A stretch of DNA of 64,000 nucleotides from Cellulomonas sp. (lineage in GTDB: Bacteria; Actinomycetota; Actinomycetes; Actinomycetales; Cellulomonadaceae), in assembly GCF_965229465.1 (NCBI RefSeq), contig NZ_OZ245882.1:2454494-2518493 (forward strand), read 5' to 3'. The position numbers and the translations under genes were made by a program. Under the pieces are notes generated by a model, which was given only the letters and a program-made list of their open reading frames with translations, ran no database searches and had not been told where the DNA came from. Numbering within the stretch: the first letter of the stretch is position 1; every line of letters begins with the position of its first letter. This document shows, one piece after another, positions 1-39,700 of the stretch.

Positions 1-1
1 C

Positions 2-5632: not shown

Positions 5633-5684
5633 CGCCACTCACCGGCGAGAGTCCGGAGGGGGCGAACGAGATTCGGTAGGCGGC

Positions 5685-6149
5685 CTAGTTGCGGCTTCTC
5701 GGCCTCGGCATCACGGGCTCCGGTGGGGGTTCGCCGTTCACTCGCCGGTAGACCAATGAACTCTCGATCAGCCCGAGCGCGACGCCAGCGGTGTTGGCGA
5801 GGAGGTCGCGGACGTCGGGAATCCTCGTCGGCAAGAACGTTCGCTGAGTGCACTCGATCACCAGGGAAGTGCCGAACCCAAGCGCGATGACCTGCCACCA
5901 CGGGACGTCGGGCCACAACCGGCCTACGAACACGCCGAACGGCACGAACATCACCACGTTGGCCGCGAACTCGACGCCCTCGTAGCTGACCCCGACGCCG
6001 TGGGCGTTCAACCAGGTAACCGCGGCCCGCACCACACCGAGCGTCTCGTCGGGCGCGGGCGCGGGTCCGAGGGTGATGGCGGCGACCGCTGCGAGGTAGG
6101 CGATGAACAGCGCGAACACCGCCCGCCGCCCCTGAGGTATCACCCGCAT
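5685..6149 (-). CDS. VanZ family membrane protein
   Basis: ANVVMFVPFG, SLVIECTQ and DLLANTAG motifs. Confidence 0.8.
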   Translation of the reverse strand: MRVIPQGRRAVFALFIAYLAAVAAITLGPAPAPDETLGVVRAAVTWLNAHGVGVSYEGVEFAANVVMFVPFGVFVGRLWPDVPWWQVIALGFGTSLVIECTQRTFLPTRIPDVRDLLANTAGVALGLIESSLVYRRVNGEPPPEPVMPRPRSRN

Positions 6150-6218
6150 CGGGCCAGGTTATGCGACGTTTCGGACGATATAGTCGGCGCTTCCCGATAC
6201 CACTTGGAGTGATATCTC

Positions 6219-7544
6219 GTGCGTCTCTCAGTCATCGGTTGCGGGTACCTCGGAGCCGTTCACGCTGCCAGCATGGCGCAGCTCGGGCACGAGGTCATCG
6301 GCATCGACGTCGACGTCAAGAAGGTCGACGCGCTGCGTGCGGGCCGCGCTCCGTTCTACGAGCCCGGGCTGCCGGAGCTCCTCACGGAGGTCGGCGCGAC
6401 CGGCCGGCTGACGTTCAGCACGGACATCGCCGACGCCGCCGGCGCGGACGTCCACTTCATCTGCGTGGGTACTCCGCAGGTGCACGGGGAGTTCCGGGCG
6501 GACCTGACCTTCGTGAATGCGGCGGTGGAGGCGTTGGTTCCGCACCTTCGCCCCGGGGACGTCGTCGCGGGGAAGTCGACGGTTCCGGTGGGGACCGCGG
6601 AGGCGATCGCGGAAGCGATCTCGGCTACCGGAGCAGTGCTCGTCTGGAATCCCGAGTTCCTCCGGGAGGGGTTCGCGGTCGAGGACACGCTGCACCCGGA
6701 CCGTCTCGTCTACGGTCTGCCGACGGATGACGACGGCGAGCCCACCGCCGAGGGGAGCAAGGCGCGCTCGGTGCTCGACGAGGTCTACGCCACCCCGCTC
6801 TCGGAGGACACCCCGCTCGTCGTCACCGACTACGCGACGGCGCAGCTGGTGAAGGTCGCGGCGAACTCGTTCCTGGCCACCAAGATCTCCTTCATCAACG
6901 CGATGGCCGAGCTGTGCGAGTCCACGGGTGCGGACGTCACGCGTCTGGCTGACGCGATCGGGTACGACGCGCGCATCGGTCGCCGCTTCCTGAACGCGGG
7001 CCTCGGCTTCGGCGGTGGCTGCCTGCCCAAGGACATCCGCGCGTTCATGGCTCGTGCGGGCGAGCTGGGGGTGAGCGACGCGCTCTCGTTCCTGCGGGAG
7101 GTCGACTCCATCAACATGCGTCGCCGTGTGCGGATGGTCGACCTTGCGCGCGAGGTCTGCCACGGGTCGATCGTCGGCAAGCGCATCGCGGTGCTCGGAG
7201 CCGCGTTCAAGCCCGACTCCGACGACGTCCGGGACTCGCCGGCACTGTCCGTCGCCGCGCAGATGCAGCTCCAGGGCGCGCACGTCACGGTGACCGACCC
7301 GCAGGCGGTCGCGAACGCGCGGGCCAAGTGGCCGGACCTGCACTTCGCCGACAGCGCGCTCGAGGCTGCCAAGGACGCTGATGTCGTTCTGCTCGCCACC
7401 GAGTGGGCCGAGTACCGCGAGATCGAGCCCGACGCCCTCGCAGCGGTCGTGGCGCACCGACGGATCCTGGACGGCCGCAACGTGCTGCAGCCCGCCCGCT
7501 GGCGGGCCGCCGGCTGGACCTACCGAGCGCTGGGGCGTCCCTGA
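6219..7544 (+). CDS. ugd: UDP-glucose/GDP-mannose 6-dehydrogenase
   Basis: GCGYLG, ICVGTP, KSTVPVGT, NPEFLREG and GFGGGCLPKD motifs. Confidence 0.92.
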   Translation: MRLSVIGCGYLGAVHAASMAQLGHEVIGIDVDVKKVDALRAGRAPFYEPGLPELLTEVGATGRLTFSTDIADAAGADVHFICVGTPQVHGEFRADLTFVNAAVEALVPHLRPGDVVAGKSTVPVGTAEAIAEAISATGAVLVWNPEFLREGFAVEDTLHPDRLVYGLPTDDDGEPTAEGSKARSVLDEVYATPLSEDTPLVVTDYATAQLVKVAANSFLATKISFINAMAELCESTGADVTRLADAIGYDARIGRRFLNAGLGFGGGCLPKDIRAFMARAGELGVSDALSFLREVDSINMRRRVRMVDLAREVCHGSIVGKRIAVLGAAFKPDSDDVRDSPALSVAAQMQLQGAHVTVTDPQAVANARAKWPDLHFADSALEAAKDADVVLLATEWAEYREIEPDALAAVVAHRRILDGRNVLQPARWRAAGWTYRALGRP

Positions 7545-8047: not shown

Positions 8048-10072
8048 CTACCGGAACAGGAACGCCCCCAGCTCGTCGGCCAGGTCCAGGCTGGCGACGG
8101 TGGTCAGGTGGTGCTCGTCGCGGTAGAGCAGGGTGTTCCCCTCGATCGCGCCGCACGTCGAGGCGTCGCACAGGTAGTCGACGGCGGGGAAGTACAGGGC
8201 GCCGTGCTCGGCGGCCACGGCGGCCTCGTCGGCCAGGCGTTCGGGTTCGATCACGTGGTCGCGGTCGTCGGCGCAGGCGGCGGCGTCGGCCAGGTGCAGG
8301 GACAGGCAGGTGGGGATGGACCCGTCGAAGTTGGGCGTGGTGCCGATGATCGCGGCGGTGCTGGTGGCGGGGAGGGCGTCGAGGGTGGCGGCCAGGCCGT
8401 CGCGCCACTCGGCCTCGGCGGTCGCGGGGTCCCGCCAGTACTGACGGCCGGAGGTGCTCAGCAGCACCAGCTCGGGCGGGTTCTCGGCCAGGTGGGCGAG
8501 CACGAGCCGGCGGAACTGCGCGCACTGGGCGTCGTAGTCGGAGGTCTGCACCACGTCGGCCGACGGGCATCCGGACTTGGCGTACAGGTCCACGCGGAAG
8601 CCCTGCTCGGTGCCGAGGGCGTCCAGGGCGGGCAGCCACTGCGTGGCGTGAGAGTCGCCGAACAGGGCGACCACGCGGTCGGAGGCGGTGTCGCCGTAGG
8701 GGCAGTCGCGCAGCGCGGAGGCGGCGTACTCGAGCTGGCACCTGTCGGCGTACGCGGCGGGGATGTCGGCGTCGACCCCGCGCAGGGACGGGGTCAGGTT
8801 GGCGGGGACAACGTCGGCGAACGCGGGTGGGGCGGTCAGGCCGGTGGTGGCGGCGTCCCGGGAGGTGGCCAGCGGCTTGCTGGCGGACCACTGGCCCATG
8901 CCCACGGCGAGCACGACGAGGGCCAGGGAGCCGGCCAGCCCGGCGAGCAGGGTGGTGCGGGCCGGTCGGCGGGTCAGGGCGCCCAGGTGGCGCATCGGGT
9001 CCTCGACGTACCGGTAGGTCAGCGCGGCCAGAGGCACCGACGCCGCGGCGAGGGAGAGGCTGACCCACAGGGGGACCTTGTTGGCCAGCCGGGACTCCAC
9101 GATGACCAGCAGCGGCCAGTGCCACAGATAGGTGGAGTAGGACAGCCGGCCCAGGTACTGGAACGGACGGGACCGCAGCACGGTGCCGGGTAGTGCGCCC
9201 GTGCCCTGCGCGCCGCCCAGGATGGCCAGCGCGGTGCCGACCACGGGGACCGCGGCGGCGATGCCGGGGAACGCGGTGCTCTCGTCGTAGAGCACGGCCG
9301 AGGCGAGCACCAGCAGCAGGCCGACGCCGACGACGACGGGGGAGCCGGTGAACCGTCGGCCGACCACCTGGGGCAGCAGGAGGGCCACCAGGCCGCCGAC
9401 TCCGAGCTCCCACGCGCGGGTGGGCAGCGAGAAGAACGCCCAGGTGGGCGCGATCGTCATGACCACCAGGTTGAGCGCGAACGAGCCGGCCACCACCACG
9501 GCCAGCGCGGCGACCAGGCGGCTGCGGGACCGCTTGACCAGCAAGGTGACGACGAGCAGCAGCAGCGGCCACAGCAGGTAGAACTGCTCCTCGACCCCGA
9601 GCGACCAGTAGTGCTGCATGGGCGAGGGGGCGGTCTCGGCCAGGTAGTCGGTGCCCTGCCGCGCGAACCACATGTTCGGCACGTACAGCGCGGTGGCGAT
9701 GGCGTCCTTGACCACCCCGGGCATCCGCAGCGGCGGCATGAACAGCGCCGCGGCCACGGTCGAGACGGCCAGCACGACGAACGACGCCGGCAGGATGCGG
9801 CGCATGCGGCGGGCGTAGAACTGCGCGAACCCGATCCGGCCGGTGCGGGTCAGCTCGGCCGCCAGGTGGTTGGTGATGAGGAACCCGGAGATGACGAAGA
9901 AGACGTCGACGCCGACGTACCCGCCGCCCAGCCCCGGCACCCGTGCGTGGTAGAGCACGACGAGGGCCACGGCGATCGCCCGCAGCCCCTCGATGTCCGG
10001 CCGGAACGGAGCCCGACGGACCGTCTCGGTCGCCGCGGGCGCGCTCGCGACGTCCACGCGTGCTCGTTGCAC
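8048..10072 (-). CDS. Acyltransferase family 3 fused to SGNH domain (OafA/OatA-like O-acetyltransferase)
   Basis: RPDIEGLRAIAV, GVDVFFVISGFLIT and HYWSLGVEEQFY motifs; SGNH GDSHA and DEHHL motifs. Confidence 0.88.
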   Translation of the reverse strand: MQRARVDVASAPAATETVRRAPFRPDIEGLRAIAVALVVLYHARVPGLGGGYVGVDVFFVISGFLITNHLAAELTRTGRIGFAQFYARRMRRILPASFVVLAVSTVAAALFMPPLRMPGVVKDAIATALYVPNMWFARQGTDYLAETAPSPMQHYWSLGVEEQFYLLWPLLLLVVTLLVKRSRSRLVAALAVVVAGSFALNLVVMTIAPTWAFFSLPTRAWELGVGGLVALLLPQVVGRRFTGSPVVVGVGLLLVLASAVLYDESTAFPGIAAAVPVVGTALAILGGAQGTGALPGTVLRSRPFQYLGRLSYSTYLWHWPLLVIVESRLANKVPLWVSLSLAAASVPLAALTYRYVEDPMRHLGALTRRPARTTLLAGLAGSLALVVLAVGMGQWSASKPLATSRDAATTGLTAPPAFADVVPANLTPSLRGVDADIPAAYADRCQLEYAASALRDCPYGDTASDRVVALFGDSHATQWLPALDALGTEQGFRVDLYAKSGCPSADVVQTSDYDAQCAQFRRLVLAHLAENPPELVLLSTSGRQYWRDPATAEAEWRDGLAATLDALPATSTAAIIGTTPNFDGSIPTCLSLHLADAAACADDRDHVIEPERLADEAAVAAEHGALYFPAVDYLCDASTCGAIEGNTLLYRDEHHLTTVASLDLADELGAFLFR

Positions 10073-10200
10073 CCGACCTCCCCGTGTGTCGGAGCCCACG
10101 CTAAGGCGCGGGCCGGGGTGGGTGATATGTCCCGATGTGGAGTTCACCCGCGCGGCGGGAGCGAGTGTCGTTACGCAAGGTAATGAGTTAGAGTAAGGAC

Positions 10201-10623
10201 ATGCCCTCAGCCTCCGCCCTCGCCGGCGACCTCCGGATCGCCGTCGGGCGAGCGTCCCGGCGCATCCGGGCGGAGCGCGGCGCGGCCGGGCTGACCGACC
10301 CGCAGTTCACCGTGCTCGCGTGGCTGACCAAGGACGGCCCGCTCACGCCGGGCCAGCTGGCCGAGCGCGAGCGCATCCAGCCGCCGTCCATGACCCGCAC
10401 GGTCAACGGACTGGTGGAGCTGGGCCTTGTCGCCAAGTCGGAGCACCCGACGGACGGCCGGCAGGTCGTCGTCACCCTGACGGACGCGGGTGTCGCCGAG
10501 GTCAAGGAGACCCGCCGACGCCGGGACGCCTGGCTGGCCGGCCGCCTGAGCACCCTGACCCCCGACGAGCGCACGCTGCTCGCCGACGCCGCCGAGCTGC
10601 TGCGGAGGATCGCCGCGTCATGA
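10201..10623 (+). CDS. MarR family transcriptional regulator
   Basis: wHTH with QPPSMTRTVNGL and DGRQVVVTLT. Confidence 0.88.
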   Translation: MPSASALAGDLRIAVGRASRRIRAERGAAGLTDPQFTVLAWLTKDGPLTPGQLAERERIQPPSMTRTVNGLVELGLVAKSEHPTDGRQVVVTLTDAGVAEVKETRRRRDAWLAGRLSTLTPDERTLLADAAELLRRIAAS

Positions 10624-12009: not shown

Positions 12010-13836
12010 GTGAGCGCAACCGTCGATGGCCCGACCGCGCCGCAGACGCGCCCCGACGACGAGCCCGACCCGGAACCGGACCCCCGTCGTCCGCGCAGCC
12101 GTCGTCGCCGCATCGTGGGCCGCGTCGTCACGGGCGTCTTCGTGGTCCTGGCCGTGCTGGTGGTCGCCGCCTGCTGGCTCGCCTACCGGGGGCTCCAGGC
12201 GTCCGAGGCGCTCTTCTCGGCCAAGTCCGTGTTCACCGACCTCAAGACGCAGCTCGACGAGGGCAGCACCGGCCAGATCGAGGCGAAGCTCCCGCAGGTG
12301 CAGGAGGACCTCGCCACCGCGCGCCGGGCCACCAGCGACCCGGTGTGGCGGGTCGCGGAGATCGTCCCCGGGCTCGGCCCCAACCTGACCGCCCTGCGCG
12401 TGGTCTCGGCGTCGCTGGAGGACGTCACCCGCGACTCCCTACCGGCGGTCGTGCGGCTCAACGACGTGCTCGAGGCGCCGAACGTGCGGGGGGCCGACGG
12501 ACGCGTGGACCTGGCGCCCTTCGTCGCGGCCGGTCCGGAGGTCATCGCCGCGGCCGAGAGTGCTCGGACGGCGCAGACCGCGGTCGCCGAGATCGACGTC
12601 GACCGGCTGGTCGGCCCGCTGGTGGGTCCGATCGGCCAGCTCAAGGACGGGCTGGACCAGGTGACCGGGGCCCTGGACGCGGGCGCGCAGGTGGCCACCC
12701 TGCTGCCGCCGATGCTCGGCGCCGACGGCCCCCGCACCTACCTGCTGGTCTCCCTGAACTCCGCCGAGCTGCGCAGCGCGGGCGGCATCGTCGGCGCCTT
12801 CGCCGTGCTGCACGCCGAGGACGGCGCGGTGACGCTCACCGACCAGCGCTCCACCATCGACCTCCAGGGCATCGACGAGCCGATCCTGCCGCTGTCGCCC
12901 GAGGAGCTGGCGGTCGACACCGACCGGCTGGGCCGGTGGGTGCAGGACGCCGTGATCACCCCCGACTTCCCGCGGACCGCGCAGCTGCTCTCCGCCCGCT
13001 GGGAGCGGGACATGGGCCAGCGCCTGGACGGGGTCGTCGCCGCCGACCCGGTGGGCGCCCGGTACCTGCTCAAGGCCACCGGCCCGGTGACCGAGCCCGG
13101 CGGCACCAAGATCGACGCCGCGGACGTGCTCGAGGTGCTGCTGCGCGACTCGTACCGCAAGATCCCGGACCCGCGGGACGCGGACGCGTTCTACGCGGGC
13201 GTCGCGGCCTCGATCTTCAAGGCGGTCGGCTCCGGGCAGGGTGACCCGCAGGGCCTGGTCAGCGCGCTGGCGCGGGCGGGCACCGAGGGGCGCATCCGGA
13301 TCTGGTCGGCGCACCCCGACGAGCAGGAGACCCTGGCCGGCACCACCGTCGGTGCGGCGTTCCTCACCGGCGACTTCCCCGACGCGGTCGGCGTGTTCCT
13401 CAACGACGGCTCGGCGGGCAAGCTCGACTACTACCTGACCACGACGGTGACGGTCGAGGACCTCCGGTGCAGCGGCGACGACCCGACGGCGACCGTCCGC
13501 CTCGACCTGGACTACCAGCCGCCCGCGGACGTCGCCTCGCTGCCGCAGTACGTGACCGGCACGGCGCAGACCGGCCTGCCGGTCGGGGTGCTGTCCACCA
13601 ACGTCACGGTCTACGCGCCCGTCGGGGCGCCCCTGCAGGCCCTCGGCCTGGACGACGGCTACGTCTCGGGCACCACCGCCACCGTGGCCGGCCGCGACGT
13701 CCAGGTGGTCACCTCCACCCTGGTCCCGGGGGCCACGGAGACCTACCGCATCACGGTCCCCGTGCGCGACGGGATGGTGTCGGCCTGGACCACCCCCACG
13801 CTGACCAGCCCCGGGTTCGTCACCGCCTCCTGCTGA
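12010..13836 (+). CDS. DUF4012 domain membrane-anchored protein
   Basis: N-terminal TM; RTYLLVSLNSAELRSAGG, PDFP and GKLDYYL motifs. Confidence 0.8.
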   Translation: MSATVDGPTAPQTRPDDEPDPEPDPRRPRSRRRRIVGRVVTGVFVVLAVLVVAACWLAYRGLQASEALFSAKSVFTDLKTQLDEGSTGQIEAKLPQVQEDLATARRATSDPVWRVAEIVPGLGPNLTALRVVSASLEDVTRDSLPAVVRLNDVLEAPNVRGADGRVDLAPFVAAGPEVIAAAESARTAQTAVAEIDVDRLVGPLVGPIGQLKDGLDQVTGALDAGAQVATLLPPMLGADGPRTYLLVSLNSAELRSAGGIVGAFAVLHAEDGAVTLTDQRSTIDLQGIDEPILPLSPEELAVDTDRLGRWVQDAVITPDFPRTAQLLSARWERDMGQRLDGVVAADPVGARYLLKATGPVTEPGGTKIDAADVLEVLLRDSYRKIPDPRDADAFYAGVAASIFKAVGSGQGDPQGLVSALARAGTEGRIRIWSAHPDEQETLAGTTVGAAFLTGDFPDAVGVFLNDGSAGKLDYYLTTTVTVEDLRCSGDDPTATVRLDLDYQPPADVASLPQYVTGTAQTGLPVGVLSTNVTVYAPVGAPLQALGLDDGYVSGTTATVAGRDVQVVTSTLVPGATETYRITVPVRDGMVSAWTTPTLTSPGFVTASC

Positions 13837-24364: not shown

Positions 24365-25354
24365 ATGGAGACGAGGCTTCTGGGACGTACGGGTCGGTCG
24401 GTCGGAGTGGTCGGGCTGGGCTGCTGGCAGCTCGGGGCGGACTGGGGATCGGTCACCGAGGAGGCCGCGCTGGCGGTGCTGGAGGCTGCGGTCGACTCCG
24501 GCGTCACGTTCCTCGACACCGCCGACGTGTACGGCGACGGACGCTCCGAGAAGCTCATCGGCACGTTCCTGCGCTCCCGCGGGCCGGACCACGGCATCAC
24601 GGTGGCGACGAAGATGGGCCGCCGCGCCGACCCGCACACCGCGGAGGCCTACACGCTCTCCTGGTTCCGCGCCTGGACCGACCGCTCGCGCGAGAACCTC
24701 GGCGTCGACACCCTCGACCTGGTGCAGCTGCACTGCCCGCCCACCGAGGTGTTCCGCCGCGAGTCCACCTACGACGCCCTCGACGTGCTGGTCGACGAGG
24801 GCCGGATCGCGTCCTACGGCGTCTCCGTCGAGACCGTCGACGAGGCGCTCGAGGCGATCGTCCGCCCGCACGTCGCGACCGTGCAGATCATCCTCAACGT
24901 GTTCCGTCGCAAGCCGCTCGAGCAGGTGCTCCCGCTGGCAGCCAAGGAGGGCGTCGGGATCATCGCCCGCGTGCCCCTGGCGTCGGGCCTGCTGTCCGGC
25001 AAGTACGACAAGGACACCCAGTTCGCGGCCGACGACCACCGGTCCTACAACCGCGCCGGGGAGGCCTTCGACGTCGGCGAGACGTTCGCCGGGGTGCCCT
25101 TCGAGGTCGGCGTCGCGGCCGCCCGCGAGGTCGCGTCGCTCACCCCTGAGGGCTGGACCACCGCGCAGCTGGCCCTGCGCTGGATCATCGACCAGCCCGG
25201 CGTGTCCGTCGTCATCCCCGGTGCGCGCTCAGCCGCCCAGGCGGTCGGGAACGCCGCGGCCGCGGCGCTGGGGCCGGTCGACGAGGAGACCCTCGGCGGG
25301 TTGCGCGGGATCTACGACGGCCGGATCCGCCAGCACGTGCACGCGCGCTGGTAG
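24365..25354 (+). CDS. Aldo/keto reductase
   Basis: GLGCWQLG, DTADVYGDG, DLVQLH and PLASGLLSGK motifs. Confidence 0.92.
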   Translation: METRLLGRTGRSVGVVGLGCWQLGADWGSVTEEAALAVLEAAVDSGVTFLDTADVYGDGRSEKLIGTFLRSRGPDHGITVATKMGRRADPHTAEAYTLSWFRAWTDRSRENLGVDTLDLVQLHCPPTEVFRRESTYDALDVLVDEGRIASYGVSVETVDEALEAIVRPHVATVQIILNVFRRKPLEQVLPLAAKEGVGIIARVPLASGLLSGKYDKDTQFAADDHRSYNRAGEAFDVGETFAGVPFEVGVAAAREVASLTPEGWTTAQLALRWIIDQPGVSVVIPGARSAAQAVGNAAAAALGPVDEETLGGLRGIYDGRIRQHVHARW

Positions 25355-28956: not shown

Positions 28957-29029
28957 GCGCCTGTAGCTCAGGGGATAGAGCACCGCTCTCCTAAAGCGGG
29001 TGTCGGCAGTTCGAATCTGCCCAGGCGCA
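28957..29029 (+). tRNA. tRNA-Arg(CCT), CCA not encoded
   Basis: Full cloverleaf: GCGCCTG/CAGGCGC, GCTC/GAGC, CCGCT-CTCCTAA-AGCGG, GGCAG-TTCGAAT-CTGCC. Confidence 0.97.
28988..29029 (+). repeat. attL core (3' 42 nt of tRNA-Arg)
   Basis: CTCCTAAAGCGGGTGTCGGCAGTTCGAATCTGCCCAGGCGCA, identical to 38041-38082. Confidence 0.95.
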
Positions 29030-29101
29030 CAAGTGTTCATGCAGGTCAGCGCATTCTTGGGTGCGGCTGGTGTGGTCGGTGCGACCGCAATGTCCGGTTC
29101 G

Positions 29102-29121
29102 TGGTCAGCACGTGGTCAGCA
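29102..29121 (+). repeat. Tandem TGGTCAGCA (11-bp period), putative integrase arm site, left
   Basis: The same pair with the same spacing occurs at 37939-37958. Confidence 0.7.
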
Positions 29122-29143
29122 GTTGCTGGTGAGGTCAGTACGC

Positions 29144-30388: not shown

Positions 30389-31489
30389 TCAGCTGGCCGG
30401 CGGAGGCTCGGGGAAGATGGGCATCCGTTCCATTGCCACCCACGGCGCCTCTGAGAAGAGGTGGCCATAGAGGTCCATCGTCATGGTTGCCGTCGCGTGT
30501 CCGAGGATCATCTGGACCGCCTTCACATCGGCGCCGGCCGCGATCAGCAGCGAGGCGGCGGTGTGACGGAGGTCGTGGATCGTCGTGCCGGCCAGGCCGA
30601 CCGACTGCGTCGTCTCGGTCCAGCGGGAGCGGACTCGGAAGTTGGTGTTGGTCCAGATGCCTCCCGTCGGGCTTGGGAACAGGTACGAGCCCGACGGGGC
30701 GCTGTCGATCCGTTCCCGGACGTAGCTTTCGAGCGTCGGCGGGACCGGCACGGTGCGCGTCTGGTGGGTCTTCGTCGGGCCGAAGATGGCGCCGCTGGTC
30801 TTCTTCGACTGCGGGGCTGCGCGGTGGATCCGGACGCCAAGGCCGTGCGGTGTCTGGACGACGTCGTCGACCCGCAGCGCGCACATCTCCGAGAACCGGC
30901 AGCCGGCCAGGCCGAGGAAGAGCACGACCGGCCGGCAGTTCGGTGGCATGGCGTCGGCGAGCTTGCCCAGCTGCTCCGCACGTAGCCAGTGCGGCTCCCG
31001 TTTGGTCGTGCCCTTGGGGAGCGGGATCGAGCGGGCGACGTTGACGGAGATCCGCCGGTCGCGGACGGCGTAGTCGAGCACCAGCCGGATGACGGACAGG
31101 ACCCGCCGCCGGGTGGCCGTCGCCAGCCCGCGAACCGTCATCGCTGTCAGCACCCGCTCGACGTCCGTCGCCGAGATCACGGCGATCGGGAAGCGCCCGA
31201 GCAGCGGGATGACGTAAGAGTCGAGCAGGAACTGCGTCGTCTCCTGGCTCCGGACGGCGAGGTGCTGTCGTGAGCCCTGCCATTCCTCGGCGAGCATCCC
31301 GAAGGACACTCGGCCGCGGCTCGGGTCGATCCAGGTGCCGCTCTGGAGCTTGACCAGCTGGTCGGCCTCCCAGCGCCTGGCGTCGGTCTTGCGCTGGAAC
31401 GACTTCTCGGCGATGACCCGGTGCTCGAAGAAGACCTTCGCGCGCCAGGTCACCGTGCCCGAGGGAAGCGTCCGCCGGGTGACGGACAT
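30389..31489 (-). CDS. int: Tyrosine recombinase/integrase
   Basis: GCRFSE (R), HDLRH, LGH and MDLYGHL (Y) catalytic residues; N-terminal arm-binding region. Confidence 0.95.
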   Translation of the reverse strand: MSVTRRTLPSGTVTWRAKVFFEHRVIAEKSFQRKTDARRWEADQLVKLQSGTWIDPSRGRVSFGMLAEEWQGSRQHLAVRSQETTQFLLDSYVIPLLGRFPIAVISATDVERVLTAMTVRGLATATRRRVLSVIRLVLDYAVRDRRISVNVARSIPLPKGTTKREPHWLRAEQLGKLADAMPPNCRPVVLFLGLAGCRFSEMCALRVDDVVQTPHGLGVRIHRAAPQSKKTSGAIFGPTKTHQTRTVPVPPTLESYVRERIDSAPSGSYLFPSPTGGIWTNTNFRVRSRWTETTQSVGLAGTTIHDLRHTAASLLIAAGADVKAVQMILGHATATMTMDLYGHLFSEAPWVAMERMPIFPEPPPAS

Positions 31490-31692
31490 CAGCGTCGGCG
31501 CGGCTGCGCGGGCTCCCGATCGACCCACGAGGCCGGGATGAGGATGACGGTCCCGAGCCGGCGGCAGGGGATCTGCTCGGTCTCGGCCAGGTGGTAGAGC
31601 GTCCGCACCGGCACCCCGAGGACGGCGGCGGCGTCCTTAACGCGGTAGTACTGCCGAGCAGCAGTGACGGCGGTCTGCGTGGTTGTCGACAT
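31489..31692 (-). CDS. Excisionase-like HTH protein
   Basis: YRVKDAAAVLGVPVRTLY..IPCRRLG (HTH_17/Xis); SD GAAGGAG; TGATG overlap with int. Confidence 0.85.
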   Translation of the reverse strand: MSTTTQTAVTAARQYYRVKDAAAVLGVPVRTLYHLAETEQIPCRRLGTVILIPASWVDREPAQPRRR

Positions 31693-31721: not shown

Positions 31722-34607
31722 TCACCACCGCTCCAGTACCGGTCCATCGGGGACCGGGCTGGGCGAGGGCGTCAAGGGGCGCGGCGTCATCTGTGGACGC
31801 AGCGGCGAGATGGCGGGCTGTGGACGGGTCGCCTGGAGCGGCGGTTGCGGGTCGTCGGGGTGGTGGGTGGCCCAGGTCTCGGTGGCGGAGGTCTCGGCGT
31901 GGGTGGTGGCGAGGATGCGATCGAGGAGCTCGCGGGCGCTCTCGGGCTCACCTCCCGGCAGGCAGTCCGGGTCGAGGCGGTCAGTGGCCACGTAGAGCCG
32001 GTTCAGGTGGCGGCCGCGGCTGACGGCGACGTAGAGGTCTTCGCGGCCCATGCCGGCGGTGATGACGGTGTGGGTCTCGTCGACGGTCATGCCTTGGCTG
32101 CGGGCGGTGGTGGTGGCGTAGCCGAGCTCGACGGACTCGGCCACGTAGACAGGCGGCAGTCGCAGGGTGCCGCGGGCTGGATCTCCGATGGGCTGGACGC
32201 GCAGGCCTCCGTCGGGCAGGACGTCGGTGATCTGCCAGAGGTCGCCGTTGCGGACGAACCCGTCGGCGGTGCGCAGGCGCCGGTTGTTGCGCCGGGTGAC
32301 GATGCGGTCGCCGATCCCACCGGTCAGTCCGTCGCTCAAGGTGATGCCGGTGGTGCGAACGGTGCCGGTGCGGATGCGTTCGGCGCGGGTGCGGGCGTTG
32401 AGCTCGTTGACGGTGCGCCGGTCGGCGGCCGCGAGCAGGACGATCCGACCCTGCGACTCGGCATCGGTCGCCGTCGAGAGTGCGTCGTCGAGCATGTCGT
32501 CGTGGGTGCCGTGGCTGACCCGGCGGTGCTGGATGTAGGCGTCCAGGGCGGCGGGGTCGCCGTGGCGCAGGTCAAGTGTGGCGCGGGCTTCCCACGGGTG
32601 GCTGAACCGCCACAGGGTGCGCAGCTCGGCGGTGGGGCCGCGGCGGGCGAGCATCCCGAAAGCCCCGCCGGCCTCGACGGCTCCGCGTTGCAGGTGGTCG
32701 CCGACGAGCAGCACCTTCGCGTCGGCGGCGCTCGCCTGCTCGAGGAGGGCGGCCAGGGTGCGGGTGTCGGCCATCGAAGCCTCATCGACGATCACGAGCT
32801 GCCCGCGGCGGAATCGCCACTGGTCCTGCTCAGCGGCGAGGCGGTGACGCCGATCGTTCGCATCCCGACGATCGATGAGGCTCGAGTCGGGGTCGCCAAG
32901 AACGGCCATCTCCGCCTGGTAGCGCAGCGACCGTTGCGCAGCACCGTCGCCCGCGGACTCGTAGATCCACTTGGCTGTCGTCTCGCACCGGGAGTCGAGA
33001 GCGGCGGACAGGGTCGCCGCCGCACTGGCCGAGGGCGCCAGCCCGACGACGTCGCCGCGCGTCAACCTCCAGGTATCGGCCAAGGCCTCCAGGGTCGTCG
33101 TCTTGCCCGAGCCGGCCGGGCCGACCAGGACGTCGAGGCTTCGTCGGGACAGGAGTACCGACTTGGTCGCGTCGCGTTGATCGTCGGCGAGGCCGCACAG
33201 CTCGCGATCGGCGATGCGATCGGCGAGAGGGTGGATCCCGATCGGGAGGTCCGTCTCGGCGGCGTCGAGCAGCGTCCGCTCGGCCTGCAGAAGCTCCGTC
33301 GACGTGAACATCTCCTCGCCCACGCGCCGCCGCTCTGGGTCTGCCTGGTCGTCGATCCGCACGCATGCGCCGCCGGCTTGGATCACCAGCGCGTTCGTCA
33401 GCTCAAGGCGGTCCTCGGGGGAAGCCATGCGGAGCGCGAGCGAGGACCGCAGCGCGGCGGCGCCCAGGTTCCAGGTCGACCACACCGACCGACGCGTCGA
33501 GACGTCGTCGATAACCTGCGCGACGATCGCCGACCGGACCTCCGGACCGACATCGGTCACCCGTAATGGGCGCCCGTAGGTCCCCGACAGCGCCCGAGCG
33601 GCCAGGTCGACGGGCTCGAGCCCGGTCAGTGCGCGTGCGCGGTTGGCCCAATCGGCGATCAGGTCCCGCAACGGGCGGACGACCTTCGGCGGCCGGGTCT
33701 CGCGGGTCAGGTGCTGCCGTGCCCGGGTCGTCTCCGTGCGAGACGGCGCCCGCCCGCGGCGCTCCGTGAAGTCCTCCGCCCAACGCTGCTCGGCACAGTG
33801 GATCTGCTCCGAGCGGGCGGAGAACTCGGCCAACAGATCCTCGCCGGCGCCGTCGAGCTCGAACGCGAGGTTCCGGCGCTCCCCACGGTCGCGCAATGAC
33901 CATGACGCGCCGATCCGCCGGGAGACCTCATCGGCGAGCAGGGCGTCGTAGAGCTCGGAGACGGTCACCACGGCGGCGTGCAGGGTGCGGCCGTCCACGG
34001 AGCGCCACGCGCCGTCGGGGCCCTGAACCTTGTTCGCGACGACGACGTGCGTGTGCAGGTTCGGGTCACCGGCGCGGGAGTCCCAGTGGTCGAACGCGGC
34101 CGCGATCATGCCGCGCGTCCTGACCTGCCGGCACCCGGCCGCGCCGACCCGGGTCCGGATCACCGAGTGCTCCACGAACTGCAACGCCGACATCAGCGCC
34201 GCCCGGTGCGCCTCGTAGAGGGTCGCACGCGTCGACTCGTCGGCCAGACCCCAAACGACGGAGACCGACTTGGGTGCGGTGAACGTCAGGTCGTAGCCGG
34301 CTACCGCGTGACGACCCTCGCCGGGGTCGCTGCTCCGGTGCGGCTTGCCGAGCGGCGTGTGACCGATCGGGTCGCACCCGTCGCGAAAGACCCGGGTCAT
34401 CGCCAGCTCGGTGACGGCGCTTCCGACGGGAAAACGACCCTCACCGAGCGACCCGAGGCCGTTGCCAAGCCAGCGACCCGCGGGGTTGCCGGTCTGCTCG
34501 TAGTACGCGATGAGCGAGTCGCCGGCCGGTAGACCGGCATCGCCGGCGGCAACGTGCCGGGTCAGGTACGCGTAGCCGTCGCCGACCGTCAGCTTGTGCA
34601 TTGACAT
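31722..34607 (-). CDS. MobF (TrwC-like) relaxase with RecD-like helicase domain
   Basis: MSMHKLTVGDGYAYL, DLTFTAPKSVS, HWDSRAGDPNLHTH (HUH), GPAGSGKT and DEASM motifs. Confidence 0.95.
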   Translation of the reverse strand: MSMHKLTVGDGYAYLTRHVAAGDAGLPAGDSLIAYYEQTGNPAGRWLGNGLGSLGEGRFPVGSAVTELAMTRVFRDGCDPIGHTPLGKPHRSSDPGEGRHAVAGYDLTFTAPKSVSVVWGLADESTRATLYEAHRAALMSALQFVEHSVIRTRVGAAGCRQVRTRGMIAAAFDHWDSRAGDPNLHTHVVVANKVQGPDGAWRSVDGRTLHAAVVTVSELYDALLADEVSRRIGASWSLRDRGERRNLAFELDGAGEDLLAEFSARSEQIHCAEQRWAEDFTERRGRAPSRTETTRARQHLTRETRPPKVVRPLRDLIADWANRARALTGLEPVDLAARALSGTYGRPLRVTDVGPEVRSAIVAQVIDDVSTRRSVWSTWNLGAAALRSSLALRMASPEDRLELTNALVIQAGGACVRIDDQADPERRRVGEEMFTSTELLQAERTLLDAAETDLPIGIHPLADRIADRELCGLADDQRDATKSVLLSRRSLDVLVGPAGSGKTTTLEALADTWRLTRGDVVGLAPSASAAATLSAALDSRCETTAKWIYESAGDGAAQRSLRYQAEMAVLGDPDSSLIDRRDANDRRHRLAAEQDQWRFRRGQLVIVDEASMADTRTLAALLEQASAADAKVLLVGDHLQRGAVEAGGAFGMLARRGPTAELRTLWRFSHPWEARATLDLRHGDPAALDAYIQHRRVSHGTHDDMLDDALSTATDAESQGRIVLLAAADRRTVNELNARTRAERIRTGTVRTTGITLSDGLTGGIGDRIVTRRNNRRLRTADGFVRNGDLWQITDVLPDGGLRVQPIGDPARGTLRLPPVYVAESVELGYATTTARSQGMTVDETHTVITAGMGREDLYVAVSRGRHLNRLYVATDRLDPDCLPGGEPESARELLDRILATTHAETSATETWATHHPDDPQPPLQATRPQPAISPLRPQMTPRPLTPSPSPVPDGPVLERW

Positions 34608-34902
34608 CACCAACGCGCCACCTCCTCCCTGCGGCCCGAGCAGCGGTTGCTCCCAGTGATAGGTGCGCCGAGAAGTGCGTAAGACGCGAGGTCGGCCTTC
34701 TCGGGCAGCCGGAGGCGCAGCGTCACGAACTCGAGTCGCGGCCCACTCCTGCAAGCAGGTATGCGGAACTGCGCGCAAGACGCGACATGGCCCGCTGGAT
34801 CGCGAGCAGTACCGCCGGACGAGAGGGTCGGCCGCTCAGATCTGACGAGGAACCTCGCGGGTTGCCCGCCCGCCCCGCGGCGTCGAGTGCGATCCTTCAC
34901 CC

Positions 34903-35610
34903 GTGAGTGGCAACTCGTGGGTCGCAGGCGCCTTCCCCGCTGCACTCCGAGCCGAGGCCACGGTCGTTGCGAAGCTCTTGCCCCGGTCGGATCTGTCGCC
35001 GAGTGGCAGATTCACCGTCGACGTCGAGGGCGAGCGCCTGACGATCCCGTACCGCATCTACAACGGAGTGACACGGGCGACGGCGCAACTGACAGTGCCG
35101 TCCGACGTCTACTGGGGCGGCATTGTGGACGCATGGGAGGCGGAGGGGGCGCTGGTCGCATCGATGGCCGCCGCCGCTCACACTCGCAGCCACGACGGAT
35201 GGGCTAGGCAACGGGCTCTGCGCAGGCTCTTGGCCGGGCCGGTGCTGGCGCCGTGGATGATTCCGTTCATCGTCCAACTAGTTGGCGAGTACGTCGTGCA
35301 GATCGTCGATGACATCGCGGAGGCGCTGCCCGACGTCGGCGTTCCGGGGTCAGTCCATCAGGCCGCGTTCGGCCGATACCTCGGCGAAAACCCAGAGGTT
35401 CTCCGCCTCACACGCGCACGAGTCGCCAGCTACTGGGACTGCTACTACCGCAGGGCCTACCCCGCGATCGAGGACTACCCGGGCCAGCGCCTGGTCGCTG
35501 CCTTCTCCCGCGCGGCGTCCGCGTCGTCGCTCGACCTGACTCCGGCGTTACGCCAAACCGGGCCCAGCAGCCGCGCAACGCACATCGCTGACGGCGAGCC
35601 GGCTGGCTGA
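34903..35610 (+). CDS. Hypothetical helical protein of a sporadic family
   Basis: IPYRIYN, HTRSHDGWARQR, PFIVQLVGEYV and SYWDCYYR conserved-looking blocks. Confidence 0.7.
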   Translation: MSGNSWVAGAFPAALRAEATVVAKLLPRSDLSPSGRFTVDVEGERLTIPYRIYNGVTRATAQLTVPSDVYWGGIVDAWEAEGALVASMAAAAHTRSHDGWARQRALRRLLAGPVLAPWMIPFIVQLVGEYVVQIVDDIAEALPDVGVPGSVHQAAFGRYLGENPEVLRLTRARVASYWDCYYRRAYPAIEDYPGQRLVAAFSRAASASSLDLTPALRQTGPSSRATHIADGEPAG

Positions 35611-35919
35611 CGGCTGGCCGTCGAGACCACGTCACGCGAGACCTGACAGCGAACGATCACACGCCCGACTCTTCTTGCACGGCGTGCCGGGGGCCTGCCG
35701 GTGACGGGGCGCGTGGCACGAGACGACGCGCGGACCGCGATCGGTGACCGAGTTTGAGTCGGAGCACTCCGCCGCTGCAGCGGAGTCGTTTGTGCGAGGG
35801 ATGGAGATCCCGAACCGCCGGCGAGCGACCGTTCTGCTCTCAAGCGTGGAGAGGCTTCGCGGGCCCCGGGGTCTGCGTCCCGCGACCTGCCTCCGCCCCG
35901 CATCGGGCCCCGCCGCGCC

Positions 35920-35960
35920 TTGACAATAGCCAGCGAACTCTCAGGTTCACTCTCTATGGT
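35920..35960 (+). promoter_or_regulatory. Candidate promoter for the TIGR04255 triad
   Basis: TTGACA at 35920-25 with CAGGTT 16 nt later. Also TATGGT (TANNNT) at 35955-60, 6 nt before GTG 35967, which fits a leaderless start. Confidence 0.5.
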
Positions 35961-35966
35961 GGGGGC

Positions 35967-36827
35967 GTGAGCGGACAGCCGAGGCCATCGCCCGTGAGCG
36001 CCACCGGTCCAGACGAGATCATCGCGACCTTCGATCACCCGCCAGTGGCAGAGGTCGTCGCTGCTGTGCGCGTGGCCGAGCTTTCCGACCAGACGTTCAT
36101 GGCTGTCGGAGAATTATGGAAGAGCAAGTTCTCAGAGTTTCCTAAGTTCGAATTGCAGCCGCCTTATGACGTCCCTGTGGAAGCGTTCGAGGCAGGGGTC
36201 CCTCGTGCGCCGTTCTCGGACCTCCGCCTATTTACCCAGCCGCCACTGTCGAGGGTCTGGTTCACCGACGCGTCTGGTCAAGAACTAATCCAGGTCCAGC
36301 ATGATTGGTTCGCCGTGAACTGGCGGAAAGTTGAGCCGGATAACGAGTATGGCAATTGGCCCGCCCGTCGCGCTGCGTTCGAGGGCGCATATGGCAAGTT
36401 CGCGGAATGGGCCGAGGGGAATGGTGACTCGATCACTCCGACGCAATGCGAGGTGACATACATAAATCACGTACTCCCCATTGCTGGCGTCTGGAGCACG
36501 CATGCCGACTCGCCTGGCCTGTTCCGTGGCCGGCCCGGCGATTACGACACGCCGCATCCACTAGAGGAGATTCGCTGGCAGGCGCGATATCTCCTCAACG
36601 GTGAAGACGGGAGCCCTCGGGGTCGCCTCCATGTTTCCGCGCAGCCTGTTTTCCGTGCAAGTGACGCCACGCCAATGATGATCCTCGAGTTAACGGCTCG
36701 AGTGGTACCGTCAGGACCGGGGCTGGAGAGCGCCCTTGAAGCGCTCGACGCCGGGCGGGCGGCGATTGTCAGGACGTTCCTTTCGACTACATCTGACGAA
36801 GCTCAGAAGGCTTGGGGATTGAAGTGA
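35967..36827 (+). CDS. TIGR04255 family protein
   Basis: FDHPPVAEVV, RVWF...ELIQVQHDWFAVNWRK and CEVTYINHV motifs; contains TTA codons. Confidence 0.8.
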   Translation: MSGQPRPSPVSATGPDEIIATFDHPPVAEVVAAVRVAELSDQTFMAVGELWKSKFSEFPKFELQPPYDVPVEAFEAGVPRAPFSDLRLFTQPPLSRVWFTDASGQELIQVQHDWFAVNWRKVEPDNEYGNWPARRAAFEGAYGKFAEWAEGNGDSITPTQCEVTYINHVLPIAGVWSTHADSPGLFRGRPGDYDTPHPLEEIRWQARYLLNGEDGSPRGRLHVSAQPVFRASDATPMMILELTARVVPSGPGLESALEALDAGRAAIVRTFLSTTSDEAQKAWGLK

Positions 36828-37288
36828 TGAGCACCGTTGCCCTGACCAAAGCAGAGTGGTTCGCCCCGGCAGGCCCAGCGGGCCTGCCCACCTCTGCGAC
36901 GATGTCCGCGGCGGGTGTGGTCGACTCCAACTTTCGTCCGTTCAATCGACACAGGCCGGACTGGTTCCTGGACGCGGTTCGAGCTGCTTTCGGCAACTCG
37001 CGCGTTCGCGAGCCGCGGGCGACTCAAAACGCCGCCCATTCACTGCTCAGTTTTCTTTCCGACACCTTCTGGACTGGAGCGCCGCAGCCAACCGTCAGTC
37101 CCACCGAGGAAGGCGGGATTTCGGCGGAATTCCGCTCGCCGACAGTCGAGGTTCACGTCGAATCAGACGCGCGCGGAGCGTTGAGTGTATATGTGGTCCA
37201 CATCGGTTTCATGGAATGGGAAGGTCCTCTCAACTCTGTGCCAGACGGCATTGAAAAGTGGGCTTGGCGCCTGACGCACACCATCTAG
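36827..37288 (+). CDS. Hypothetical protein, putative antitoxin
   Basis: TGATG coupling to the upstream gene; PQPTVSPTEEGGISAEF motif. Confidence 0.65.
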   Translation: MSTVALTKAEWFAPAGPAGLPTSATMSAAGVVDSNFRPFNRHRPDWFLDAVRAAFGNSRVREPRATQNAAHSLLSFLSDTFWTGAPQPTVSPTEEGGISAEFRSPTVEVHVESDARGALSVYVVHIGFMEWEGPLNSVPDGIEKWAWRLTHTI

Positions 37289-37302
37289 AGCCGCTAGCCG
37301 CA

Positions 37303-37779
37303 ATGGTGGTGGATCCGTCCGAAGGTCTTCGTGACCTCGTAGACGCGGGCCTTGACCCGGACGAGGTGTTGTTCCGCATCGTCCAGCCGGGCTTTGTCAA
37401 TTTCGCCGTCGAGCCACCCGAGGCCCAGAGCAACGGGTTTCAAGACCAGAGGCTGGATGTTGCCAATGGGTTCGGCCTAAACGGTCCGTGCGCTTCCGTC
37501 GCGATTAAGTCGATCTGGGTCGCGGAGGGCGCGGACGTCGATCAGCTCCTCGCCGGATTTCCAGCCAACTCGGGTATCGCCCAGTTCACGGTTGGGGCGG
37601 TCCGGGATCTTCTTACGCTTGCCGGCGAACCCTGCCCGCAGAGCGTGATGCCGGATCCCCGCGACGGAAGCCCGTGGCACGCAGTCATGTGGGACGAGAA
37701 GCGAGCCGGTCATACCAAGGCAGTCAAGCGCGCTCGCGCCCAGGTTGCCGAGTGGTTCAGGGAGCCCACCGCCCACTAA
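37303..37779 (+). CDS. Hypothetical protein, putative ART/RES-fold toxin
   Basis: EVLFRIV (R25), SNGF, ASV (S65) and DP..SPWHAV pattern; starts 14 nt after the previous stop. Confidence 0.6.
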   Translation: MVVDPSEGLRDLVDAGLDPDEVLFRIVQPGFVNFAVEPPEAQSNGFQDQRLDVANGFGLNGPCASVAIKSIWVAEGADVDQLLAGFPANSGIAQFTVGAVRDLLTLAGEPCPQSVMPDPRDGSPWHAVMWDEKRAGHTKAVKRARAQVAEWFREPTAH

Positions 37780-37938
37780 GGGGCTGCGTCGGTCCAGAAT
37801 CCCCACGGCTCTGCTGCCTCGCTTCTGTTCGGGCACATATTGGCCTCGCCTGAGTGCCCGGAGGACGCACTGGCGGGTGGGTCCGGCACGGGCGTGGCAG
37901 GGAGACCGCCGACCGGCGCGGATGATTGGGCCCCGGCG

Positions 37939-37958
37939 TGGTCAGCAAATGGTCAGCA
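37939..37958 (+). repeat. Tandem TGGTCAGCA (11-bp period), putative integrase arm site, right
   Basis: Matches 29102-29121. Confidence 0.7.
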
Positions 37959-38040
37959 GTCTGCCCAGAACCTTGTCAGTTGGGGAACTATTTGCATGTA
38001 TTTCCGCAGGTCAGCGCTCTGCAGACTCCTTGAGCTCGAA

Positions 38041-38082
38041 CTCCTAAAGCGGGTGTCGGCAGTTCGAATCTGCCCAGGCGCA
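38041..38082 (+). repeat. attR core (duplicated 3' end of tRNA-Arg)
   Basis: Exact 42-bp copy of 28988-29029. Confidence 0.95.
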
Positions 38083-38220
38083 TAGTGTGTTGCAGGTCAG
38101 GGCTTGGTGGCTGCAGTTGGCAGGGCTTGTAGGGGCCTCGTGGTCAGCATGAGGACAGAAGGCTCCTGCGGGGCATGCGATTCGGCGGTTTCAGCGTGAT
38201 CGGTCTGATGAGATAACGAC

Positions 38221-38856
38221 ATGGAGATTGAGCGCGAGCATCAGCGCTGGCTTGATCACGAGCTTGAGCACGGCTACATCCGCGTGAGGCTGCGGTTGCT
38301 GACCACGGCGGAGGGTGGGCGGCGTACGTCGATCTACTCGGGCTATCGCGCCCACTGGGGATTTCCGCCGGAGGTCCACCGCGAGTCGCATGATGCACCG
38401 CTCGTCCTCGAAGACGCCCTTGAGCTTGAGCTCGGCCAGTCGGCGACTGCTCGCATCCATCCGATGTGGCCCCAGGGTTGGCCTGAGGTCACACCCGGGC
38501 TGAGGCTCGGCATGTTCGAAGGATCTCGGCTGGTTGGCACCGCAGAAGTCCTGAGCCAGATTGGCCCGGAGATCGCCGCGCGCCCCCCGGCCGTGGGCAA
38601 GGGCAAGAAGGTGACGCCCAGTTCGCCGAAGTCGGAGTGGGTCGGTCGCCTTCCTGCCGGACCGCCGATCCGGGACGAGTTGGCTCGTCTCGTCGATTCC
38701 GACGGGGGCCGGGACTCGGCCGAGAACGACTACTTCGAAGCGGCGAACGACCCGCAGTTTGTTGCGCTCGAGACGGCCAAAAGGCGGTTTCGGGCCCAAC
38801 TTCGTCGACGGCTCCGGCATCTTCGGGCCACGGCGCGTGGTAAGCCACGGCAGTAG
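38221..38856 (+). CDS. Standalone EF-Tu domain III-like protein with C-terminal extension
   Basis: LLTTAEGGRRTSIYSGYRAH and GLRLGMFEGSRLVGTAEV parallel EF-Tu L.KEEGGRHTPFF.GYRPQ and G.RF.IREGGRTVG.GVV; no GTPase domain. Confidence 0.65.
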   Translation: MEIEREHQRWLDHELEHGYIRVRLRLLTTAEGGRRTSIYSGYRAHWGFPPEVHRESHDAPLVLEDALELELGQSATARIHPMWPQGWPEVTPGLRLGMFEGSRLVGTAEVLSQIGPEIAARPPAVGKGKKVTPSSPKSEWVGRLPAGPPIRDELARLVDSDGGRDSAENDYFEAANDPQFVALETAKRRFRAQLRRRLRHLRATARGKPRQ

Positions 38857-38867
38857 CCGAATCCTCT

Positions 38868-39700
38868 TCACACTGTCCATTGGCCCGAGCTTGGCCGGCG
38901 CGACTCAGCGGTGACGATTGCGGTTGGTGTCGTCAGCGACGAACGCAGCGCGTCTGCGCCGAGGTTGGGACTCCGGGGCCGGCGACCCACGAACTTCGGG
39001 GCCGACGCCACGCCGCGCGGTGCGCGTCGTAGAGAGCGGTTCGCGTGCGGTCGTCGGCCAGCCCCCAGAGGATCGAGACCGACTTCGGCTACCGACGGAA
39101 GTACCCGTGTGAGATAGCCGCCGGGTGGTACGTCGAGCGGCGGCTGAGCGGCCGGATACGCCTGATCAGGCCGCCTCGGCCACAAGACCTCAACCGTCTC
39201 GGCCGCCGCTTGAAATGCTTCGGCATCCACGGTGAAACTCGACTCGTCCACGCCGACGCCGGGCCGGCGATGACGAGCACCGGGTCTCCGGGCGGCGGAG
39301 CTGGGGTCAACCACAGTGCGCTCGACCACTCGCCGCCACCACCGCCCCAGTGGGTGAGCACCGGCTGGTCTGATGCCGGCCAGTTGTTCCGGATGTGGCG
39401 CCCGGCTACGGCGGCGGTACGTCCCTCGGCGATTTCCACTCCGGCGAAGAGTTCCGCATCGACTGCCGGGTGCACGCGATCGCCGAGGTCGGGATCGAGA
39501 CGACAGCGGACCGCCAGCTCGATCTGGAGTCCGGCGGTGTAGCGAGTGAGGCCGACGAGAAGGATCGACACATCTGCGGACCGCCCGACGCCGCCCCTCG
39601 CGCCGACAGCGGAGGGGGCTCGGTTGTCCGGCGGTCCGAACCGGGATCTCGCCTGCGCGACGTCGTTCGCGTCGCCGGAGACAGCCAGGGTCGAATGCAT
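38868..39700 (-). pseudogene. Frameshifted paralog of the 55158-55799 gene
   Basis: Collinear similarity over the shared region; a 1-nt deletion near 39258 splits it across two frames. Confidence 0.75.

Follow-up and report, generated by a model that had tools for sequence, protein, structure and literature searches.

The closest described relatives of the genes treated here belong to the PDC systems, 145 candidates defined by their embedding inside BREX, DISARM and type I restriction-modification (RM) loci (Payne et al., bioRxiv 10.1101/2024.01.29.577857), among them the two-gene system PDC-M32. Elsewhere in the literature searched, PDC-M32 appears merely as PADLOC hits listed in Sinorhizobium prophages. 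The other family concerned, TIGR04255, has no described function; NCBIfam labels it 'sporadically distributed' and uncharacterised, and no mention of it was found in the literature searched. We analyzed a stretch of 64,000 nucleotides of Cellulomonas sp. (contig NZ_OZ245882.1), called the window and used as the frame of all its coordinates, and in it a set of three genes of approximately 1.8 kb, g1, g2 and g3 (the triad), in which a TIGR04255 gene stands before relatives of both PDC-M32 genes. We read the triad, with evenly balanced confidence, as a conserved and horizontally mobile cassette that is a three-gene relative of the PADLOC candidate PDC-M32 and a conflict module, for defence or addiction.

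The three genes are located on the forward strand. The first, g1 (35967-36827), starts with GTG, has an alternative in-frame GTG start at 35994 and encodes a TIGR04255-family protein of 286 amino acid residues, proposed to be a recognition or sensor subunit. The second, g2 (36827-37288), encodes 153 residues with a PDC-M32A-like C-terminal domain and is the proposed adaptor or regulator of g3, while g3 (37303-37779) encodes a distant PDC-M32B homologue of 158 residues, the proposed effector enzyme. The stop codon TGA of g1 (36825-36827) and the ATG of g2 (36827-36829) share an A, giving TGATG, and a spacer of 14 nucleotides (37289-37302) separates g2 and g3, so that the three packed open reading frames (ORFs), their overlap and their gap agree with a preliminary description of this DNA. 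In all three genes, the GC content of the first and third codon positions is higher than that of the second, which is consistent with coding. The triad has a GC content of 62.1%, against 70.8% in the window outside the mobile element that carries it, and none of 256 equal-sized segments outside the element shows a value as low. The window as a whole is high-GC actinobacterial DNA (about 71%), and the spot counts on which the lower GC had first been noticed were reproduced exactly (0.50 at 36121-36180, 0.80 at 12301-12360). TTA codons, which had been ascribed to the three genes, are found in g1 (codons 50 and 242) but not in g2 or g3. Other stretches of lower GC (62-65%) are found in the window at positions 1-5000 and 38100-39000.

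A g1 profile search of species-representative genomes found 300 relatives, and the best 80 loci were retrieved. Gene order was judged on 84 loci by g2 and g3 profiles, 81 of them with enough sequence. The order g1-g2-g3 on one strand was found in 80 of the 84 loci, that is, in 80 of the 81 informative ones; the exceptions are three contig ends and one locus (L061) with an unrecognisable 131-residue ORF in third place. The loci span at least seven phyla and include Actinomycetota, Planctomycetota, Acidobacteriota, Chloroflexota, NC10, Gamma- and Betaproteobacteria and SAR324. Look-ups centred on g3, whose family comprises 77 cluster representatives among 1.84 billion proteins, agree: two distant members (28-29% identity) again have upstream genes encoding 264-273 and 163-164 residues, and the same three-gene architecture is present in Logan and JGI contigs. 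The three genes thus form one unit, as had been supposed. The cassette of one distant g3 relative adjoins a methylase/Vsr/HNH cluster. In JGI 3300047160, a contig (P0005 locus) shows a truncated g2 of 88 residues and, downstream, a 154-residue gene assigned to the g3 position by its location only, whereas g1 is absent upstream; its neighbours encode a reverse transcriptase, an integrase, an HTH_17 excisionase and a TrwC relaxase, a backbone like that of the element in the window, with phage portal and protease genes nearby. The 492-residue g1 relative P0008 was considered as a g1-g2 fusion and rejected, being merely an over-extended ORF call in high-GC DNA.

Spacing is also conserved. Taking the most upstream ATG or GTG within 30 nucleotides of the g1 stop codon as the putative g2 start, these starts mostly overlap the g1 stop by 4-26 nucleotides, and the g2-g3 gap ranges between -8 and +34 nucleotides in all loci but one. 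Median identities are 40, 27 and 32% for g1, g2 and g3, respectively, and pairwise identities rise and fall together in the three proteins (r 0.81-0.86; 0 of 300 permutations as high), a correlation partly owed to their common species phylogeny. A Bryobacteraceae metagenome-assembled genome (L043) contains two complete and divergent triads (4902-6787 and 8674-10567) on one strand, 3.7 kb apart, with identities of 48% in g1, 24% in g2 and 34% in g3. One of these triads is identical to a triad on another contig of that genome (L054). No conserved fourth gene is found beside the triads of the loci compared, and their 113 nearest large neighbours represent 124 Pfam families, mostly housekeeping, the commonest being phage integrase (four). 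Variable neighbours and no fourth gene fit an autonomous mobile module. In IMG/VR, two of the four viral contigs bearing g1 have the full triad.

In g2, conservation is low over the N-terminal half and concentrated in a C-terminal domain of approximately 110 residues. The PDC-M32A model of PADLOC is matched by 49 of 52 g2 relatives, always at model positions ~260-375 and with a best E-value of 1e-14; the g2 of the window reaches positions ~282-340 only, at E 3.7e-4. When the g2 profile was aligned by hhalign with a PDC-M32A protein from a Rhodococcus plasmid, which is genuine according to its match over model positions 1-371 (E 1.7e-168), it gave 98.2% and E 5.6e-14 over residues 265-375 of that protein. 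By these profile comparisons, the C-terminal domains of g2 and PDC-M32A are homologous. None of g1-g3 and none of the 52 g2 relatives shows a DNA-binding antitoxin domain (HTH, RHH, AbrB or Phd), and the g2 sequence gave no link to solved structures. A weak match to influenza NS1 was discarded, as it is confined to the window's own sequence.

Two plasmids show g2-type domains in other contexts. In the Acetobacter persici plasmid pAC1084_1 (L089:3944-5249), a protein of 297 residues has tandem g2-type domains (residues 31-111 and 159-253), and its gene is followed, with overlap, by an SspB-family gene (PF04386, E 2.5e-11) where a g3-type gene would stand; about 3 kb upstream is another gene annotated as SspB. 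This locus is a hint that the g2 domain may be connected with ClpXP adaptor proteins. A Segatella copri plasmid (L091:2237-4318) carries a stand-alone g2-type protein of 158 residues, 0.5 kb downstream of a pair consisting of a Panacea-domain protein and a 156-residue gene. Panacea is an antitoxin domain of PanAT systems.

The g3 profile, compared by hhalign with an alignment of five PDC-M32B proteins, gave 89.1% and E 2.2e-6 over 125 columns, with the conserved R, F, S and H in register, and g3 is on this alignment a distant homologue of PDC-M32B. The g3 of the window gave no match to the PDC-M32B models of PADLOC; among 57 g3 relatives, four match one of them, with E-values no better than 0.01, and a second model is matched by one member. 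PADLOC 2.0 does not recognise the triad of the window, since g1 and g3 have no match and g2 has only the weak one given above. The g2 family covers positions 260-375 only of the full-length PDC-M32A (~375 residues), and the triads have three genes, not the A-then-B pair. PDC-M32A was considered as a TIGR04255 protein fused to the g2 domain and this was rejected, as its N-terminal part does not resemble g1 in sequence. The candidate link to defence made in the preliminary description gains from the relation of both g2 and g3 to PDC-M32. Its statement that the arrangement, with the putative chaperone gene first, lacks a functional description still holds, though PADLOC already lists the g2/g3 core among its candidates; the triad is not catalogued as such.

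A further relative is found in the temperate Gordonia phage MagicMan (L095:1154-2938, gp30-gp32). Its gp31 has a g2-type domain (E 8.5e-5) and its gp32 is PDC-M32B-like, with E 1e-7 in an independent tblastn search and E 5e-65 to an M32B profile built with gp32 included. The gp31-gp32 pair adjoins a BrnT-like toxin and an RHH protein. With gp30-gp32, MagicMan may represent a further, third arrangement of this core, in which the additional module may be gp30, the N-terminal part of gp31, or both. Since the g2 domain and g3 recur in triads, PDC-M32 and MagicMan, they form a recurring core that is joined to different third modules. Genuine PDC-M32 pairs adjoin VapBC and RelE/ParE, a type I restriction subunit, or a BrnT toxin.

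The g1 protein passes the curated TIGR04255 cutoff of NCBIfam (46.6 bits, cutoff 30; E 3.8e-12) over the full model (positions 2-252 of 252), so its family assignment stands. Its AlphaFold2 model (predicted local distance difference test score, pLDDT, 91.5) is confident and shows two beta-alpha-beta4-alpha repeats. Foldseek ranks the TBP core domain first (E 3.6e-3, probability 0.96), with di-domain SRPBCC cyclases and START/PYL proteins next; the aromatase/cyclase StfQ (E 6.6e-3), McsB/phosphagen kinase domains (template modelling score, TM, 0.29-0.34) and, weakly, EspG (TM ~0.15) are also found, and none of the fold matches is significant at 1e-3. The predicted fold of g1 is TBP-like, with two alpha/beta repeats. 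The SecB-like chaperone proposed earlier is not supported: Foldseek shows nothing like SecB, and g1 has no Pfam match of any kind, hence none to the SecB family. No internal sequence repeat was detectable in g1 and its sequence gave no link to solved structures. The family alignment has 17 invariant columns, mostly polar or charged and on beta strands. Invariant residues alternate along the strands (Q109/Q111, N118/R120, E162/T164) and therefore define one conserved sheet face.

The AlphaFold2 model of g3 is a compact alpha/beta fold with six strands (pLDDT 95.3). The residues singled out earlier (R25, S43, F46, S65-V66 and H126) are present as placed, and R25, S65 and H126 are the only invariants of the family; F46 is nearly invariant, and the invariants are unchanged after adding the PDC-M32B proteins. 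The model places R25 on strand 1, and S65 and H126 are located where strands 2 and 5, respectively, begin. Placement of R, S and a third residue on strands 1, 2 and 5 is the active-site pattern of ADP-ribosyltransferases (ARTs), which have Glu where g3 has His. The earlier proposal of an ART- or RES-like g3 is thus borne out in the residue positions but not established in fold or family, as no PDB match reaches E < 0.33 and no Pfam ART or RES family is matched. Among the PDB matches shown by Foldseek, ParT has the highest TM-score (0.30, E 2.8). In BFVD, the best match is an unnamed phage protein of 149 residues (probability 0.96, TM ~0.4, E >0.01), followed by a 'putative RNA 2'-phosphotransferase' (Tpt1) of phage PaBG (probability 0.75, TM 0.41/0.50, E 0.079). 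The first 50 kb of PaBG show no gene named for this protein, and the best 25 of 98 phage matches to KptA do not include it. Compared with the catalytic signatures R-S-E, H-Y-E, R-E-S and the R-H-R-R tetrad of ARTs, g3 shows none, having no conserved Glu at the strand-5 position. On the whole, an ART-like, NAD+-using activity of g3 is doubtful.

The carrier of the triad is an integrative mobilizable element (IME) in the gene for tRNA-Arg(CCT). According to ARAGORN, this tRNA gene lies at 28957-29030 on the forward strand and is the integration target; its 3' 42 nucleotides (28988-29029) are the attL copy of a repeat whose attR copy, 100% identical, is located at 38041-38082 on the forward strand. 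The element of approximately 9 kb contains the recombinase, the relaxase-helicase, three ORFs without assignment and the triad, which ends 262 nucleotides from attR, as in the preliminary description, where it was placed on an IME just inside attR. The tyrosine recombinase or integrase (30389-31528, reverse strand) matches XerA, XerC, XerD and Int of PDB by phmmer (E down to 4e-11). The MOBF-type, TraI/TrwC-like relaxase-helicase (31722-34607, reverse strand) matches the TraI and TrwC relaxase domains by the same method (E 3e-20 to 1e-14) and has a Pif1-like helicase stretch. The presence of this protein makes the element mobilizable; no conjugative apparatus was found, as the 9 kb contain no other large ORFs. 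In the source-genome run, the element assembles as a separate contig of 9,069 nucleotides with the repeat at both ends. Direct results of the analysis are the mobility of the cassette, its homologies, its gene order, the co-divergence of its proteins and their folds, confidently predicted and compared with known structures.

Further observations concern the element and its flanks. In the source run, the depth of the element contig is 357 and that of the flanks 240 and 387, and a 4.1-kb contig of depth 28 meets the attR repeat with a single mismatch. Positions 34800-36427 and an attL-type junction are also present, at depth 2, in the run of a different organism, where they could stem from carry-over or from this same element. 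Imperfect direct repeats with a GGTCAGC core are found inside the element ends (29030-29122 and 37936-38017) and outside attR (38138-38161), and may be arm-type integrase binding sites. Directly outside attR, 38191-38880 shows overlapping ORFs of approximately 210-230 residues on both strands, and the ORF on the forward strand has no Pfam match. ARAGORN also reports a tRNA-Arg(ACG) at 24782-24876 which, with 95 nucleotides, is unusually long for a bacterial tRNA.

Upstream of the triad, a 235-residue ORF (34903-35610, forward strand) has no Pfam family and lies outside the conserved cassette. It is followed by an intergenic region of 356 nucleotides (35611-35966, forward strand), the presumed promoter region of g1. 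The triad had been credited with promoter-like signals of its own, which did not emerge: a consensus scan of 35500-38100 gave no sigma-70-type promoter and no intrinsic terminator, and a search for operator-like repeats around the triad found nothing convincing, only short palindromes such as those in the intergenic region. No -10 hexamer follows the TTGACA at 35920-35925 at a distance of 16-18 nucleotides. A TANNNT-type hexamer, TATGGT (35955-35960), lies six nucleotides upstream of the g1 GTG, and its placement may fit a leaderless g1 transcript.

From these data we infer the roles of the three proteins, their assembly in a complex, toxicity and a part in defence. In the proposed mechanism, g1 would be the recognition subunit, binding nucleic acid or a small ligand on its conserved polar sheet; g2 would tether and control g3, and g3 would be the catalytic effector, possibly NAD+-using or ART-like. 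Activation of g3 on phage infection or element loss would arrest the cell or block the invader. The third module would be exchangeable, being the N-terminal 260 residues of PDC-M32A there and a separate TIGR04255 protein here. A conflict module is favoured because of mobility, patchy distribution, variable context, tandem divergent copies and the defence and toxin neighbours of PDC-M32. By the same observations it is improbable that the triad has no conflict function and is a sporadic stress, metabolic or nucleic-acid-processing operon, or an accessory for transfer, riding on mobile elements: housekeeping genes do prevail among the neighbours, with few defence genes, and toxin, antitoxin and defence models match neither g1 nor g3 directly, but the cassette is patchy across at least seven phyla while remaining intact among unrelated neighbours, it stands in two divergent copies side by side in one genome, it is carried by an IME and viral contigs and has a relative in a temperate phage, its GC is far below that of the host, and its relatives are defined by embedding in BREX, DISARM and RM loci.

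Several results weigh against the conflict module and the mechanism proposed for it. Of the 113 nearest large neighbours, few match defence models and most are housekeeping genes, so that enrichment in defence islands is not shown. PDC-M32 has candidate status only, as one of the 145 PDC systems (bioRxiv 10.1101/2024.01.29.577857). The module swap rests on position only, because g1 is unlike the N-terminal part of PDC-M32A. The support from two environmental metatranscriptomes, whose contigs match g2 (36787-37080) and the g2/g3 junction (37273-37424) with 100% identity, is weakened by possible DNA carry-over. The conservation of g1, the highest of the three, is typical of an enzyme more than of a fast-evolving sensor and is the main internal tension of the proposal. 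Finally, the g3 model gave no significant match to solved structures, the g3 profile matched nothing among PDB sequences, none of the 57 g3 members matched the Pfam ART, RES or PTS_2-RNA families, and hhalign of g3 with Escherichia coli KptA gave a probability of 0.1%.

These g3 results also bear on the organisation first proposed for the locus, a tripartite toxin-antitoxin-chaperone module in which a SecB-like g1 would stabilise a labile antitoxin, g2, which in turn would neutralise an NAD+-consuming ART/RES toxin, g3. A tight three-gene operon on a mobile element is what such a module would look like, and the poorly conserved N-terminal half of g2 looks unstructured, as the tails of chaperone-addicted antitoxins do. 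The positions of R, S and H on strands 1, 2 and 5 of g3, ParT as the PDB match with the highest TM-score, the BFVD match to the RNA 2'-phosphotransferase and the presence of EspG chaperones among the weak g1 matches also speak for it. However, g1 is TBP-like and not SecB-like, and EspG reaches only the low TM-score given above; ART, RES and SecB matches are absent in Pfam, NCBIfam and PADLOC; every ART-like structural match of g3 is below significance, as is KptA by hhalign; and a His occupies the position of the catalytic Glu. Furthermore, g2 has no DNA-binding domain, and PDC-M32 fuses the g2 domain to a domain of 260 residues, unlike a small labile antitoxin. The tripartite module is on balance quite unlikely. 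Equally low is the probability that g1 is instead the catalytic or signal-producing component, with its polar sheet face as active site or ligand pocket and g3 as regulator or accessory: g1 is the most conserved protein, its 17 invariants are mostly charged or polar and alternate on strands, and Foldseek lists enzymes such as StfQ and the McsB/phosphagen kinase domains, but no g1 fold match is significant at 1e-3, what triads, PDC-M32 and the phage variant have in common is g2 with g3 and not g1, and the R/S/H of g3, invariant throughout all three, is the signature of a catalytic core.

The conflict-module reading ties TIGR04255 to two obligate partners and, via them, to the candidate defence system PDC-M32; the obligate partnership of g2 and g3 with TIGR04255 and the TBP-like fold predicted for g1 are findings of this analysis. 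It also defines an invariant core, the g2-type domain and the R/S/H protein, plus a swappable third module. The cassette is well defined and widespread and has a confidently predicted effector fold without a solved relative, and it is one of many such candidates. In its strongest form, which we regard as unlikely, g3 and PDC-M32B would constitute a new enzyme family, with an ART-like Arg-Ser-His site or a new fold, acting as effector of a widespread system of three components, directed against phages or serving addiction, in which a TBP-like TIGR04255 protein senses a nucleic-acid or nucleotide cue, an adaptor couples the two and the sensor is exchangeable. The triad offers a compact target of approximately 1.8 kb for work on an effector chemistry that may be new and on a candidate TBP-like sensor, be it in phage defence or in mobile-element stabilisation; if the cassette is inert or housekeeping, PDC-M32 would lose credibility as a defence candidate.

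Among characterised systems, the anti-phage toxin RnlA offers a precedent for a TBP-like recognition module: it uses TBP-like domains for substrate binding, and its TBP1 domain is required (PMC8266594). RnlA and LsoA, in which tandem TBP-like domains are followed by a HEPN RNase, resemble the triad in combining a tandem TBP-like module with a conflict effector; they differ from it in that the triad has its TBP-like module as a protein of its own and a non-HEPN effector. Neither is among the top 50 Foldseek matches of g1, and the likeness is at the level of fold class only. The ART toxins (ParT/ParS, RES-Xre/MbcT, DarT and CmdT) and Tpt1/KptA are, like g3, small alpha/beta proteins with a conserved Arg on strand 1 and a Ser at the start of strand 2; however, the third position of g3 is His and not Glu, there is no significant structure or sequence match between them and g3, and the partners in the triad are unrelated to ParS, Xre, DarG and CmdA/CmdC.

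HigBA-SecB and CmdTAC are, like the triad, sets of three co-transcribed small genes on mobile DNA with a possible logic of effector, controller and helper, but the triad has no SecB-like protein, a different gene order and no component homologous to theirs. PDC-M32 differs from the triad in having two genes and not three: the N-terminal 260 residues of its A protein are absent from the triad, which has a separate upstream TIGR04255 protein without detectable similarity to them. In the remaining features PDC-M32 and the triad correspond, since the C-terminal domain of g2 is related to residues ~265-375 of A, g3 is related to B with R, F, S and H aligned, the gene order and the start/stop overlap are the same, and both systems are found on plasmids, phages and other mobile elements.

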